Source: Candidatus Thorarchaeota archaeon (GTDB lineage: Archaea > Asgardarchaeota > Lokiarchaeia > Sigyniarchaeales > SOKP01). From it: a stretch of DNA of 64,000 bases. The translations under genes and the position numbers were made by a program. Positions 6,471 through 63,002 of this stretch are shown here, piece after piece (within the stretch, counting starts at the first letter, position 1; every line of letters starts with the position of its first letter). The stretch covers positions 22,945 through 86,944 of the forward strand of contig JBHLRJ010000001.1 of NCBI GenBank assembly GCA_048882645.1. The letters run 5' to 3'. The notes below the pieces were generated by a model that saw only the letters and a program-made list of their open reading frames with translations, was not told where the DNA came from and made no database searches.

Positions 6471-7139
6471 ATGCTTAAAGAATTAGATACCTTATTTCAG
6501 AGTTCCACAATTAGACCAACATTTGAAAAAGTACATGTTATACTAGCATTATTCATATTTGATGAAAATCCAGAAGGAATTGGAAGATACCGATTAAAAA
6601 AGGAGTTATTGATTGGAGAGGGTACAGCAAAATCGTTAATCAATAAATTAAAGGCTGTGAAGTATATATCTGTTTTAGATCAAACAAGAAGAAAAGGGCA
6701 CATTCTTACAAGTACAGGATTAGAATACTTAAAGAAAATTATGAAGGTAATACCATTAATGGAAAAAGGAGATTCAACAATTTTAAAAGATATAATAATA
6801 GATTCTGAGAATACATCAAGCTATTTCTGTTTAGTGAAAACAGGCATTAAAAAAATTCGAGATGGTGTAAGTCAAAGAGATGCTGCTATTAAAGTTAATG
6901 GCTCTGGAGCAACGTGTATTGTTTACGATGGTAATAATTTAGTTTTCCCTACCAAATCTGATTCAGAAAGTCTTAATAATGATATAGTTGTTAGTGATAC
7001 TCTAAATGATTATTTTAAAGCTGTGTTTTTAAAAAAAAATATTAAGCTACAGGACACCGATGTAATCGTTATTGGATCTGGAATCAACCCTCAGTTAGCA
7101 CGGTTAGCAACACTTAGTGCGGCTTTAACGTTAATTTGA
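6471..7139 (+). CDS. winged-helix (wHTH) domain protein with uncharacterised C-terminal domain
   Basis: 222-aa ORF. The N-terminal 'GIGRYRLKKELLIGEGTAKSLINKLKAVKYISV...GHILTSTGLEYLKKI' pattern is wHTH-like. It may correspond to the archaeal DUF4443-type family (from memory, unverified). Confidence 0.5.
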   Translation: MLKELDTLFQSSTIRPTFEKVHVILALFIFDENPEGIGRYRLKKELLIGEGTAKSLINKLKAVKYISVLDQTRRKGHILTSTGLEYLKKIMKVIPLMEKGDSTILKDIIIDSENTSSYFCLVKTGIKKIRDGVSQRDAAIKVNGSGATCIVYDGNNLVFPTKSDSESLNNDIVVSDTLNDYFKAVFLKKNIKLQDTDVIVIGSGINPQLARLATLSAALTLI

Positions 7140-7159
7140 ATATTTTGTGAAATAATATT

Positions 7160-7657
7160 ATGAAACTTGAAAAAGATATAATTCTGTTTCTAACTGAAAA
7201 AATTGTGACAGAATTAAAAGAATGTAAAAGAGATTCAGATCCTATTGAAGCTTGCGGACTCATTTTTGGAGATATTAAAAATGTTAAAGTTTCTAAGGAA
7301 GATTATCAATATCATTATATCGGTAAACAGTTTTATTGTCTTAAATCAAACATTGAATCATATGGCTCATTTGCTTTAATTCAAGATACTGATAAATATT
7401 ATGAAATTCATCAAGATGCTATTTATAATAAGAAGTTACGAATGATAAGCATATTTCACTCACATCCGGTTCCTCCTTACCCGAGTTCAATTGATATAAA
7501 AAATATGAAGTATCTTGATGAGGATATAGGAGAAACCAAAAATCCATTTAAAAACCAAATTTGGACGATAATGGATATGAGCACAGAAGAGATCAATGGT
7601 TTTATATATTACAATAAAGAATTATTACAAATTGTTATACAAATTAAGAATAAGTAG
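7160..7657 (+). CDS. JAB/MPN (JAMM) domain metalloprotease-like protein
   Basis: 165-aa ORF 20 nt after the previous gene. It has the catalytic Glu context 'IEACGLIFGD' and 'FHSHPVPPYPSSIDI' (HxH...SxxD, JAMM-like, spacer one residue shorter than the consensus I recall). Confidence 0.7.
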   Translation: MKLEKDIILFLTEKIVTELKECKRDSDPIEACGLIFGDIKNVKVSKEDYQYHYIGKQFYCLKSNIESYGSFALIQDTDKYYEIHQDAIYNKKLRMISIFHSHPVPPYPSSIDIKNMKYLDEDIGETKNPFKNQIWTIMDMSTEEINGFIYYNKELLQIVIQIKNK

Positions 7658-56245: not shown

Positions 56246-57490
56246 GTGAATGTAGTAATGACTTTTTTTACAGAAGAAATGCAGCAAAGAATTAGATATC
56301 TGCATTTCAAGATAAAGCATATTGAAAATGCTTTAGAAAAAGATGATGAATATTTTAGTCTAGATGATCTAAATCTTATATTAGAATATACTAAGATCTT
56401 GAATAAAAACTATCAAAAAGAAAATCACTTTGAAATTTTAAAGGATTTAGATATTACACCCTCCTTTCAAGATTTCTTGGCGAATAGAGAGATAGATATT
56501 CAAGATATTATGTTTGAATGTGCTCGTGTACTTTGGATTATGGCTAAGGCATATTCTCAACTTTCTGAGAAATATGAGGAAGAAAAAGATTGGGAAAATG
56601 CAATAATAGCTATGACAGAATGTAGCAAGATTTATAAAACCTCTGCCTATTTTAGTGCTGCAGCCATATTCCAAAAAGATATGGGAAATATTCTTAGTTC
56701 AGAAAATTTAGAATTAAATTCAGAAGAAGCTAGAATTCTTGCTCAAAGCATAGGAGCATTACATGAAGAAACAAATAACAATATCTATTTTGCTTCAAAG
56801 TTATATGCGGGGCTTAGTCTATTGTCAAAAAGGTTGTTTTATTTGAAGCAACATGGTGAAAAAAAGAAGCAACAAATTCGGGCTCAATTTCATTATGATA
56901 TGGGAAAAGCGTGTTTCCTTAAAGCTAAAGCTTCTGTTGAATCCTCAATTACCAATATAAATAAAGAAAAAGTAAAAAAACTACATCAAAAAGCAATTTG
57001 GTACTATGAAAAAGCTAAAGAAATTTGGGATGAAATGCTTAAAACTCTTACCTTAACTAACGAAGAAAAAGAAAACATTAAATTAAATTTGTCAATAGTT
57101 GAAGAAAATCTTAAGGAAAGCGAATATGAAGAATTGAGCTATGAAGAAATCAAAAAAATACAGGATCCAGAACCAATAATAATTATACCTGAAAATTTGG
57201 CTCCTTTTGTACCAAAAAATATTATCTATTTAACTAAATTTGTGCCGAAAGATTTAAACATTAAAAGATTTAAAGGATATCAAAGAAAGAAATTAGAAGA
57301 AAAAATACCTTATAGTAAGAAAGAGAAGTTAATAGATCAGAAAGCTGGTGTTGTACGAACACTAAATGAATTAAAATTGTTAAAAGAAAATAATGAAATT
57401 GATGTGGAAAAATATGCTGAACTTATGGAGAAATACTCCACTAAATTGAAGATGATTGAATCAGCAATAGGAAAAATTGCTAAAAAATAA
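56246..57490 (+). CDS. uncharacterised helical-repeat (TPR/BRO1-like?) protein with C-terminal coiled coil
   Basis: 414-aa ORF (GTG start). All-helical with paired amphipathic helices, followed by a 'PEPIIIIPENLAPFVP' linker and a Lys/Glu-rich tail. Confidence 0.55.
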   Translation: MNVVMTFFTEEMQQRIRYLHFKIKHIENALEKDDEYFSLDDLNLILEYTKILNKNYQKENHFEILKDLDITPSFQDFLANREIDIQDIMFECARVLWIMAKAYSQLSEKYEEEKDWENAIIAMTECSKIYKTSAYFSAAAIFQKDMGNILSSENLELNSEEARILAQSIGALHEETNNNIYFASKLYAGLSLLSKRLFYLKQHGEKKKQQIRAQFHYDMGKACFLKAKASVESSITNINKEKVKKLHQKAIWYYEKAKEIWDEMLKTLTLTNEEKENIKLNLSIVEENLKESEYEELSYEEIKKIQDPEPIIIIPENLAPFVPKNIIYLTKFVPKDLNIKRFKGYQRKKLEEKIPYSKKEKLIDQKAGVVRTLNELKLLKENNEIDVEKYAELMEKYSTKLKMIESAIGKIAKK

Positions 57491-61119: not shown

Positions 61120-61241
61120 CCTATAAATTTTTAAAAAATTGCATTGATTATAATTTAAATATCTAGAATTTGTTTAGATTCTATATAGAAAAAGAAATTT
61201 AGTTTTTAAAAATATAGGATAAGGGCATCACCTACAAAAAA

Positions 61242-62375
61242 ATGAAGAAGAAAAATATTGATCCTTTTGACACACCGGTTTTAGTAACATTAAAAGCATA
61301 TAAACGAATCGTGGGTTATGCTATTAGATATGCCAATGACAACATCAATGAGAGTAAATGGCGCGAGGTTTATGGAATTTTAATAGGATCAATTGAAAAA
61401 GAATCAAAAGTTGTAATTAAGGATGCCATTCCTATGGTTGTTGGCGATAGGGCTGGAGTTAAATATGAAAGTAAACAATATGTTGATATGGCTCAAATAG
61501 ATGCCTCTATATATGAGAGATCTGTTCAAGACGAGAAAAATGATTTTATAATTGGTTGGTGGCATACACATCCGGGTTTTTCTCGTCATGGATTTTTTTT
61601 CTCTCCAATAGATTGTATGACTCAATTAGGATATCAGATCCCGAATCCTTATGCTGTAGGATTAATTTTCGATCACTGTGAAACGAAATCGAGTTCGAAT
61701 TACTTAGGGATTGCAGGAGTCAGATTAAAAAATCCAAACCGTGGTCTTTCTTCCGCGTATGACCTAATAGAGTTGAGCTATGAATTAAAAGAATCGGAAA
61801 TGGTGAAAAAGGCTGAAGAAGTAATAAAAGAAATAAATAATAATATGGATAAAGTTTTAAAAGAACTTGAATATATTGAGGAGATACTTCGGAAAAAAGC
61901 ACTTGCCCAACTTCAGAGAAACTTCGGATTAATTTTGGTCCAAAAAGAAGAAATCAAAGTAACTGATAATGAGGAGGAAGCCGAAGAGGACGAAAGATTT
62001 TTATATGAATGGGATCCGGAATTTTTTGAAAAATCATATCGAATACCAAAATTCAGAGAAAAAATTGAAAGCACAATATCGGAAGCGTATGATGAATTAG
62101 ATCAATTAATTGAACAGGGAGAAAAGGAACAATATGAAATTAGAAAAGAAAAATTAGTAAAGAAAATACAAAATATCCTCAAAAAACCAAATGAGTGGTA
62201 TGAAAAATTAATGGATGATTTCTCAGCACGAATAGAGATAATCAGCCCTTTATTCTTTTATTTAGACACCAATGAAAGAAAGATTGTTGAATATTTTGAA
62301 GAAAGGAGTTCAGAATATTACAGAATATTAGATAATTTAAATACCCGAGCTGAATTAAATTTAGAAGATTTTTAA
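61242..62375 (+). CDS. Rpn11/CSN5-like JAMM (MPN+) metalloprotease with long C-terminal helical extension
   Basis: 377-aa ORF. Glu context 'WREVYGILIGS', then 'FIIGWWHTHPGFSRHGFFFSPIDCMTQ' (compare eukaryotic 'GWYHSHPGxGCWLSGxDxxTQ') and 'YAVGLIFD'. The C-terminal ~190 aa are Glu/Lys-rich helices. Confidence 0.8.
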   Translation: MKKKNIDPFDTPVLVTLKAYKRIVGYAIRYANDNINESKWREVYGILIGSIEKESKVVIKDAIPMVVGDRAGVKYESKQYVDMAQIDASIYERSVQDEKNDFIIGWWHTHPGFSRHGFFFSPIDCMTQLGYQIPNPYAVGLIFDHCETKSSSNYLGIAGVRLKNPNRGLSSAYDLIELSYELKESEMVKKAEEVIKEINNNMDKVLKELEYIEEILRKKALAQLQRNFGLILVQKEEIKVTDNEEEAEEDERFLYEWDPEFFEKSYRIPKFREKIESTISEAYDELDQLIEQGEKEQYEIRKEKLVKKIQNILKKPNEWYEKLMDDFSARIEIISPLFFYLDTNERKIVEYFEERSSEYYRILDNLNTRAELNLEDF

Positions 62376-62468: not shown

Positions 62469-62828
62469 GTGAATTATTTTTTTCTCGAAAGAGGTTCTTT
62501 CATGGTTAATGACACCACTATTATTATTAGAAAACGAAGTGATAAAGAGAAATCTATTAAAGACGCGATATTTGCATTTTCTGGTGGTAAAAAATCACTG
62601 TTAATAAAGGGAGAAGGAGAAGAGATAAGTACAGCAGTAGAAGTTGCTGAGATTTTAAAAAATCGTATGTACCCAAGGCTAGAAATCGGCAATATATCTC
62701 TTGGAAGCCGTCCTTTTATTCATAGAAGGAATCATAGGTATAATGAAAAAAAAAAGAAAGATAATAAAAGTAAGATAGATATCATTTCAAATATTGAAAT
62801 TACGCTCCAAACGAAATCATTTACGTAG
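62469..62828 (+). CDS. Alba-like nucleic-acid-binding protein
   Basis: 119-aa ORF, with the probable start at 'MVNDTT'. 'IIIRK...SIKDAIFAF..GKKSLLIKGEGEEISTAVEVAEILKNR...EIGNISLGS...ISNIEITL' follows the Alba (Sac10b) beta-alpha-beta-alpha-beta-beta pattern. Confidence 0.6.
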   Translation: MNYFFLERGSFMVNDTTIIIRKRSDKEKSIKDAIFAFSGGKKSLLIKGEGEEISTAVEVAEILKNRMYPRLEIGNISLGSRPFIHRRNHRYNEKKKKDNKSKIDIISNIEITLQTKSFT

Positions 62829-62834
62829 TATAAA

Positions 62835-63002
62835 ATGTCTAATTTTAAGCATTTAGGTCCACTATTGGACGAAGCTCGTACAAATGAGGTTTGTGCACTT
62901 TGTAATAATTTTATTTATAAGCGTATATATTATGATGAAAATTCAAAAAAGAAAAGAAAAGTTGTTTTTGTGTGTAAAAATTGTTTGAAGAACGATGATT
63001 AA
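62835..63002 (+). CDS. small Zn-ribbon protein (55 aa)
   Basis: ATG 6 nt after the Alba-like stop. Hand translation: 'MSNFKHLGPLLDEARTNEVCALCNNFIYKRIYYDENSKKKRKVVFVCKNCLKNDD', with CxxC...CxxC. It is below the ORF-track length cutoff. Confidence 0.45.
   Translation: MSNFKHLGPLLDEARTNEVCALCNNFIYKRIYYDENSKKKRKVVFVCKNCLKNDD

Follow-up and report, generated by a model that had tools for sequence, protein, structure and literature searches.

We analyzed a 64,000-nucleotide stretch of DNA from an Asgard archaeon (Candidatus Thorarchaeota archaeon, assembly GCA_048882645.1; hereafter the window) and found that one of its genes encodes a 377-residue protein in which a JAMM-type metalloprotease domain is fused to a family-restricted, previously undescribed helical domain (Table 1). 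The catalytic part is an MPN domain of the eukaryote-like Rpn11/CSN5/BRCC36/AMSH type and not of the compact prokaryotic JAB type. We consider it rather probable that the protein works by itself as a catalytically active zinc isopeptidase on a ubiquitin-like modifier (Ubl), with the lineage-specific helical arm targeting or regulating it. The finding is a modest one, as the tail is lineage restricted and a three-residue insertion in the metal-binding motif is a minor loop variant. The kind of catalytic domain was known already, and public annotation names an MPN family protein: homologues, whose source labels are Promethearchaeota or Lokiarchaeota metagenome-assembled-genome proteins, appear as "Mov34/MPN/PAD-1 family protein" or "proteasome lid subunit RPN8/RPN11." These source labels mark the organism as an Asgard archaeon of the Loki type. 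In the literature on Asgard MPN/JAMM proteins and deubiquitinases, we found no paper on a tail-bearing JAMM family.

A eukaryote-like MPN domain

The protein matched the eukaryote-centred Pfam JAB model (PF01398) at 32 bits (E = 1.2e-7), over the cutoff of 22.5. The Prok-JAB model (PF14464) reached 23 bits, under its cutoff of 25, and the NCBIfam model for the haloarchaeal desampylase (NF041370) reached 18.5 bits, far under its cutoff of 130. When PDB sequences were searched with phmmer, the significant matches were, in order, the Rpn11 homologue of Caldiarchaeum (CsRpn11; E = 1e-9), CSN5, Rpn11, BRCC36, and AMSH. A profile of 28 family members gave 58 bits for Rpn11, 56 for CsRpn11, 42 for both CSN5 and BRCC36, and 41 for AMSH-LP. 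With the single sequence and with the profile, PDB matches at E values below 0.01 came solely from the CsRpn11, Rpn11, CSN5, BRCC36, and AMSH groups, and the weaker rows among those listed were unrelated helical proteins.

An AlphaFold2 (AF2) model was built on the 28-sequence family alignment. At full length, its mean predicted local distance difference test score (pLDDT) was 86 and its predicted template modeling score (pTM) was 0.81, with pLDDT mostly 82 to 95 over the MPN domain. In structural alignments with VIA, the MPN part superposed on CsRpn11 from its complex with ubiquitin (6fnn_A) with a Z score of 18.7 and a root mean square deviation (rmsd) of 2.1 Å over 148 residues at 28% identity, and on yeast Rpn11 (5u4p_B) with a Z score of 18.2; a Foldseek search with the model returned E values of about 1e-10 for the same part. 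A preliminary description of this DNA, made from the sequence by a model, had called the protein an Rpn11/CSN5-type JAMM and had pointed to the context of the catalytic glutamate, EVYGILIGS. The profile, PDB, and fold matches bear out the label, and both segments quoted there, EVYGILIGS and the JAMM motif GWWHTHPGFSRHGFFFSPIDCMTQ, are present. Placement within the ordinary prokaryotic JAB families, named there as an outcome that would count against the proposal, finds no support, given the subthreshold Prok-JAB score and the distant position of the Prok-JAB outgroups in the tree described below.

Across the 28 aligned family sequences, which extend down to 32% identity, none of the five catalytic residues (E42, H108, H110, S121, and D124) varies, and the same holds for Y44, G45, L47, G49, P111, G112, and F119. 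In CsRpn11, Rpn11, and AMSH, the Ins-1 segment forms a beta-hairpin with the C-terminus of ubiquitin (PMC6043591). The equivalent segment of our protein is about 7 residues longer than the CsRpn11 Ins-1, and its residues G68, E76, and Y80 are invariant in the same 28 sequences. The block from residue 71 to residue 80 has a lower pLDDT of 64, which fits a mobile loop in the model. Inspection of the alignment revealed no long Ins-2, as residues 145 to 156 are short and variable and hold no conserved Cys/His set, and just 10 residues precede the MPN core. Because of the Pfam, PDB, and fold matches and the invariant catalytic and Ins-1 residues, the domain is a eukaryote-like MPN+ domain that shows every sign of catalytic competence. 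By this reasoning, Glu42 would position the catalytic water, His108, His110, and Asp124 would hold the zinc, and Ser121 would stabilize the intermediate, while the Ins-1-like loop would clamp a ubiquitin-like modifier by its extended C-terminal tail.

The spacer between H110 and S121 comprises 10 residues, compared with 7 in the canonical motif, as the preliminary description had correctly counted. HMMER alignments to CsRpn11 and human CSN5 place a three-residue gap exactly at this insertion. In most of the 121 closest homologues (109), the spacing is the canonical HxH-x7-S, usually in the form HTHPGFGFFYSPID, and the 12 others carry three extra residues (SRH, SRN, SRP, SGP, or SSQ). Eleven of these 12 form one clade (support 99) in a FastTree phylogeny of 140 family members, and the twelfth lies elsewhere; the insertion thus has about two origins. 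It falls in the loop between the HxH strand (residues 102 to 109) and the Ser/Asp helix (residues 122 to 132) and is modelled without secondary structure at a pLDDT of 68. Other Asgard MPN+ families have independent insertions of 3 to 4 residues at this site and keep the motif, for example, HTHPFKSNPNSIFLSSID and HSHPHLFQHKIFFSPTD. We conclude from these comparisons that the insertion is a tolerated, recent loop bulge of a small subclade and not a family trait. The insertion noted in the preliminary description is therefore real, but a motif variant of evolutionary weight it is not.

An identity of the insertion with Ins-1, which that description had proposed to check in a model, was ruled out, as the Ins-1-like segment sits 35 residues upstream. 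A role of the inserted histidine as a zinc ligand or in a second zinc site was likewise ruled out because only 2 of the 12 inserts contain a histidine. If the insertion is functional at all, it would tune substrate preference and not metal binding. In the di-ubiquitin structure of AMSH-LP, residues of the corresponding loop contact the proximal ubiquitin on the substrate (prime) side.

The departure from the x7 spacing and the lower confidence of the loop could also be read as signs of a catalytically dead scaffold, with the insertion distorting the zinc site and the subclade protein acting as a binding module only, and MPN- pseudoenzymes do exist in the same genome. Every insertion-bearing sequence, however, keeps all five catalytic residues, the insert varies freely between fixed flanks, and the same loop has accepted insertions in other families that retain the motif. 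The MPN core moreover superposes closely on that of an active enzyme, whereas the true MPN- paralogue of the genome has lost the HxH outright. Both the conservation of these residues and the good superposition of the core speak against a disrupted zinc site, and we regard a dead scaffold as highly improbable.

The C-terminal helical domain

The preliminary description had also noted a Glu/Lys-rich helical tail of about 190 residues. The tail is there, with 31% Glu plus Lys and 42% charged residues, and AF2 predicts it with high confidence to be almost entirely helical (helices at residues 184 to 227, 244 to 255, 259 to 265, 270 to 291, 295 to 340, and 343 to 369); modelled by itself, it reached a pLDDT of 84. 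Its acidic linker drops below a pLDDT of 50 at residues 249 to 255 and varies in sequence and length among homologues. Three patches, in contrast to what a featureless coiled coil would lead one to expect, are at least 95% conserved across 140 sequences, and at the level of sequence the tail is more than such a coil. In patch 1, this level holds for K219, A222, Q223, Q225, N227, G229, and L230. W257 and P269 in patch 2 and Y359 in patch 3 are invariant, and F271, R272, and E276 in the former and D342, E345, and R346 in the latter are nearly so.

The tail matched no known domain. Comparison of the tails of 28 members with Pfam and of a tail profile with PDB sequences gave chance-level matches at most, among them BAG1, designed bundles, and Est1. 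A Foldseek search of the PDB with the tail-only model returned nothing below an E value of 0.1. VIA alignment of this model to about 48,000 chains gave a best Z score of 10.1, to designed helical bundles and spectrin repeats, generic matches of the three-helix-bundle or spectrin-like kind that lie within the range (up to a caution level of about 13) in which helical bundles can match by arrangement alone. A phmmer search of all frames of the genome with the tail found the tail itself alone, and hhalign comparison with the tails of five paralogue groups gave a best probability of 9.6%.

Two observations hint at how the tail relates to the catalytic domain. The family profile is collinear with Rpn11 past the MPN core to about residue 255 of Rpn11 ("LrkkklaqLqr...nyGLlL" versus "LEEKMLLNLHKkkwNDGLTL"), with patch 1 aligning to the Rpn11 segment KMLLNLHKkkwNDGL. 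Whole-chain superpositions gave rmsd values above 20 Å. VIA alignments to EMC9, BRCC36, and full-length CsRpn11 reach model residues 346 to 355, while the alignment to truncated CsRpn11 ends at residue 179, which suggests that in the model the last tail helix occupies the site of the C-terminal MPN helix of EMC9, BRCC36, and CsRpn11, docked on the MPN core. Taken in detail, these hints do not agree with each other, and neither settles the matter, but both fit a tail that folds back onto the catalytic domain, an arrangement also implied by the pTM of the full-length model. The tail and the MPN domain are thus predicted to form one body, with the tail as a self-contained bundle and not a free assembly helix. 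A homodimer prediction for two copies with the family alignment scored 0.00, a result that carries no weight in either direction.

These properties bear on whether the protein is a subunit of an assembly of the proteasome lid, COP9 signalosome (CSN), or BRCC36 isopeptidase complex (BRISC) type, in which its tail would bundle with MPN or PCI-like tails and the enzyme would be active only in the complex. Eukaryotic MPN+ subunits use their C-terminal helices in this way, as is well established (PMC6043591). The collinearity with Rpn11 beyond the core is in keeping with such a role, and the genome holds seven eukaryote-type JAB paralogues, including one MPN- and several with long helical tails, together with weak matches to a PCI model. 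The PCI matches, however, are not specific, because the same model also matches 4 of 14 ordinary prokaryote control genomes, and no MPN-, PCI-like, or other MPN gene adjoins the target in the flanks within the window. The tail resembles that of no paralogue, occurs in little more than one archaeal family, and in the model forms a bundle within the single chain. We therefore think an assembly subunit improbable. The helical bundle that the preliminary description had asked to look for is present in the model, but the analogy it drew to lid, CSN, or BRISC assembly has no support beyond the short collinear stretch.

The target has the motif contexts GW[WY]H[ST]HPG...S..D..TQ and EV.G...G in common with Rpn11 (PSMD14) and CSN5, and like them it carries helices beyond the MPN core. 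Each of these two eukaryotic subunits has an MPN- partner alongside PCI subunits and contributes its two C-terminal helices to a shared bundle, whereas the target has no evident partner and a tail that is three times longer, self-folding, and unrelated by fold search. In the stand-alone isopeptidase that we favor, the 194-residue domain would be an elongated bundle of helices, particular to this lineage, that folds as a unit with the MPN domain. Its three strongly conserved patches would probably make up a surface for docking or regulation and thereby determine the location or the substrate of the protease. It is unlikely, in our estimate, that the arm docks the protease on a large machine (for example, the proteasome-activating ATPase, Cdc48, the ribosome, or the endosomal sorting complex required for transport [ESCRT]) as an independently evolved counterpart of lid-bound Rpn11, with KxxAQLQRNxGL as a remnant of the post-MPN assembly helix of Rpn11 and CSN5.

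Table 1. The JAMM gene and its features, in window coordinates
Feature	Residues	Positions	Strand	Basis or remark
Whole gene, 377 codons plus stop	1-377	61242..62375	+	Open reading frame list and translation
MPN/JAMM catalytic domain	10-183	61269..61790	+	Pfam JAB, AF2 model, fold match
EVYGILIGS with catalytic Glu42	42-50	61365..61391	+	Aligned to EVMGLMLG (CSN5) and EVAGLLVG (CsRpn11)
Ins-1-like segment VGDRAGVKYESKQY	66-80	61437..61481	+	Same place as Ins-1 in the CsRpn11 alignment
JAMM motif GWWHTHPGFSRHGFFFSPIDCMTQ (H108, H110, S121, D124)	105-128	61554..61625	+	Conservation
Insertion SRH	114-116	61581..61589	+	Gap in HMMER alignments to CsRpn11 and CSN5
C-terminal helical domain (194 residues)	184-377	61791..62372	+	AF2 prediction
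Conserved patch 1, KALAQLQRNFGL	219-230	61896..61931	+	KxxAQxQxNxGL
Acidic, poorly ordered linker, including DNEEEAEEDE	236-254	61947..62003	+	pLDDT 55-66
Conserved patch 2, YEW ... IPKFREKIE	255-276	62004..62069	+	YxW ... PxFRxxxE
Conserved patch 3 and last helix, DTNER ... Y359 ... L363	342-366	62265..62339	+	DTxER ... Y ... L
TTTTTAAAAATATA, possible archaeal TATA/BRE (B recognition element)-like promoter element		61203..61216	+	26 nucleotides upstream of ATG; read by eye

Distribution, paralogues, and proposed function

A search of 1.84 billion cluster representatives returned 317 proteins at E values of 0.001 or lower. About 22 of them are full length, with both MPN domain and tail, and the others are tail or MPN fragments or other MPN paralogues; no eukaryotic sequence is among the 317, such sequences scoring too low against this query. 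Across the phylum, 400 genomes were searched with the tail profile, which matched 123 of the 134 from the target's own family, 2 of the 14 from a sister family of the same order, and none of about 250 from other families, always as a single copy where present. Two single-contig genomes of the sister family are among those that lack the tail domain. The single-copy presence in the target's family, together with the 70 to 93% identity of close homologues to the target, points to a selected function. In a quick maximum-likelihood tree of 127 MPN domains, which was limited to archaeal sequences with no eukaryotic sequence included and was scored by the Shimodaira-Hasegawa-like approximate likelihood ratio test (SH-aLRT) without bootstrap, the tail-bearing proteins formed one clade (SH-aLRT 100) among many Asgard MPN+ clades. 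Two Prok-JAB genes of the genome, included as outgroups, fell outside this clade on very long branches.

Some relatives are longer, at 430 to 614 residues, by virtue of disordered C-terminal extensions. In those of 500 to 614 residues, no Pfam domain was found in the extensions as a fusion partner. The extensions of the long forms end in conserved acidic-aromatic motifs (…LDEIFE…W and …EDELF…), which by their sequence look like short docking motifs.

The preliminary description had suggested a search of the genome for the rest of a ubiquitin-like system. Ubl, E1, E2, and RING genes are all present, and the PCI matches are the weak and unspecific ones described above. E1 and E2 are each encoded by two genes, and there are RING fingers as well. 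Of six matching ubiquitin-like frames, two exceed the Pfam cutoff. Their C-termini are QAGG plus one residue, STAG, or AG with an extension behind it; the extensions, which several of the frames have, imply that candidate substrates for processing exist. Besides the target, there are six further PF01398 paralogues and additional Prok-JAB genes. Two of the paralogues lie in ubiquitin-type operons, one on contig C62 (Ubl, ThiF-type E1, UQ_con E2, and JAB) and one on contig C73 (E2, E1, and JAB).

The target is the weakest of the seven against the JAB model. In phmmer comparisons with Rpn11, the C62 paralogue scored 60 bits, the C73 paralogue scored 44, and the target scored 29; taken against Rpn11 and CsRpn11, the operon copies reached 60 and 44 to 47 bits and the target reached 29 and 41. 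Because the operon copies score higher against Rpn11, the target is best regarded as a diverged extra paralogue and not as the Rpn11 equivalent. A view of it as the closest Rpn11 analogue in its own genome thus does not hold, with the ubiquitin-operon paralogues scoring about twice as high against Rpn11.

We favor a function in which the enzyme would work apart from the two Ubl-E1-E2-JAB operons, as a specialized paralogue like AMSH or BRCC36, and would most likely remove or mature one of the several ubiquitin-like proteins of the genome. Several points weigh against this proposal. The neighborhood of the target contains no ubiquitin-like, E1, or E2 gene, and because, in addition, the gene order around it is lost in distant members, the context gives no substrate. 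The lower score of the target against Rpn11, less than half that of the C62 paralogue, means that its substrate may have diverged, and the insertion loop has a model confidence that is only moderate.

The position outside any ubiquitin operon, the low JAB score, and the greater distance from Rpn11 than that of the operon copies would also suit a metalloprotease that acts on something other than a ubiquitin-like protein, one that, for instance, trims a protein C-terminus or a peptide bound by the arm, and prokaryotic JAMM domains are established to have several roles unconnected with ubiquitin. Against this stands the invariance of two elements that hold the ubiquitin tail in solved complexes (PMC6043591), namely, the Ins-1-like loop and the hydrophobic residues on either side of the motif. 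Every significant solved relative acts on ubiquitin or NEDD8, and the genome has more Ubl genes than operons. On balance, we find this alternative unlikely and retain an isopeptidase for a ubiquitin-like modifier.

Among known enzymes, the best solved sequence match is CsRpn11 of Caldiarchaeum subterraneum (PDB 6fjv and 6fnn; PMC6043591), with 28 to 29% identity over the core. The two proteins are alike in being soluble MPN+ enzymes of archaea with an Ins-1 loop and at most a small Ins-2. CsRpn11, however, is about 200 residues long, its gene neighbors a Ub-E1-E2-E3 operon, and its motif keeps the canonical x7 spacing. The target differs in its additional helical domain, the greater length of its Ins-1 region, the absence of an operon, and, in its subclade, the x10 spacing. 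The target resembles, with significant matches in sequence and fold, BRCC36 and AMSH/AMSH-LP, stand-alone or small-complex deubiquitinases of the JAMM class and specialized MPN+ enzymes off the proteasome that are directed to their partners by helical modules, a coiled coil in BRCC36 and an MIT domain in AMSH; its own helical domain is homologous to neither. Unlike BRCC36 with Abraxas, it has no adjacent gene for an MPN- partner, the MPN+/MPN- pair of this genome being at a different locus (contig C57), and unlike AMSH, it has no N-terminal MIT domain and no second zinc site in an Ins-2. Other Asgard MPN+ families, namely, a stalked MPN+/MPN- pair, an MPN-TPR fusion, and the operon JABs, make up with it one large radiation with varied helical modules, within which the tail-bearing proteins are a clade of their own in the quick tree, with a tail unrelated to those of the other families.

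Among known prokaryotes, the Asgard archaea are the nearest relatives of eukaryotes. The observations touch on the open question of the path from a single archaeal Rpn11-like enzyme to the many complex-embedded JAMM deubiquitinases of eukaryotes, as in at least one family of the Lokiarchaeia there is a full complement of eukaryote-like MPN+ paralogues that differ in the helical module fused to each. If the arm of the target is indeed a targeting device, the design of a catalytic MPN core plus adaptor helices would have been explored repeatedly in archaea.

Several features of the paralogous loci are recorded here. The ubiquitin-type operons occupy C62:16330-21660 and C73:18287-20286, with extra Ubl genes nearby. 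The extensions that follow AG in ubiquitin-like frames are YYNYKKR and KIKKFII, and a separate Ubl on contig C89 ends in QAGG plus Ile. Frames extended beyond AG occur on contigs C62 and C92. At C57:8290-15508 there is a cluster of three MPN genes in which an MPN- copy (447 residues, with ISRPG replacing the HxH) abuts an MPN+ copy (500 residues). Both members of this pair have coiled-coil tails of about 300 residues and exceed the cutoff of Pfam UPF0172 (EMC8/9). The cluster further contains a 138-residue Zn-ribbon protein, the third MPN gene, an MPN+ one (316 residues), and a 734-residue AAA+(Mg-chelatase/MoxR)-VWA protein. The paralogue closest to the target in its MPN domain (phmmer E = 2e-28) is a 511-residue MPN+ protein at C147:6394-7926 on the minus strand, with a C-terminal TPR-like domain (Pfam Rgg_C, 28.8 bits). 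By analogy, this MPN-TPR fusion recalls the binding of MPN-fold EMC8/9 to TPR-fold EMC2 in eukaryotes.

Gene context

The window lies on contig C1 of an assembly of 3.79 Mb in 168 contigs that is 88% complete and 7.6% contaminated and has roughly 3,500 proteins. The region around the JAMM gene has 30% G+C. The assigned gene start is consistent with the N-termini of about 120 homologues, each of 373 to 378 residues, and the upstream element TTTTTAAAAATATA is a candidate archaeal promoter element.

The neighboring genes are housekeeping or unrelated in function: they encode an ATP-grasp protein, NifU, a hydrolase, phosphoribosyl pyrophosphate synthase, a P-loop kinase, Alba, a Zn ribbon, and a VTT membrane protein. 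The order kinase-JAMM-Alba-Zn ribbon is kept in a relative whose protein is 48% identical, in which the whole region is collinear, but neither the more distant members nor the sister family show it. Gene order as a functional link was rejected, since it amounts to mere collinearity among close relatives.

Downstream, at positions 62469 to 63002 (plus strand) of the window, there is a gene for an Alba-family protein (Pfam Alba, 42 bits) with a basic insertion and, 6 nucleotides after it, a 55-residue zinc-ribbon open reading frame (CxxC...CxxC). This pair adjoins the JAMM gene in close relatives only. The compact 165-residue JAMM that the preliminary description had placed at 7160 is real and belongs to Prok-JAB. 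Its gene (7160 to 7657, plus strand) lies within 6471 to 7657, starting 20 nucleotides after the gene for a 222-residue protein with PH0730-like N-terminal and DUF4443 domains. At 56246 to 57490 (plus strand), a 414-residue helical protein has no Pfam family, with a subthreshold DUF5375 match only; its position is conserved in the region of the 48%-identity relative, where the protein has 411 residues.

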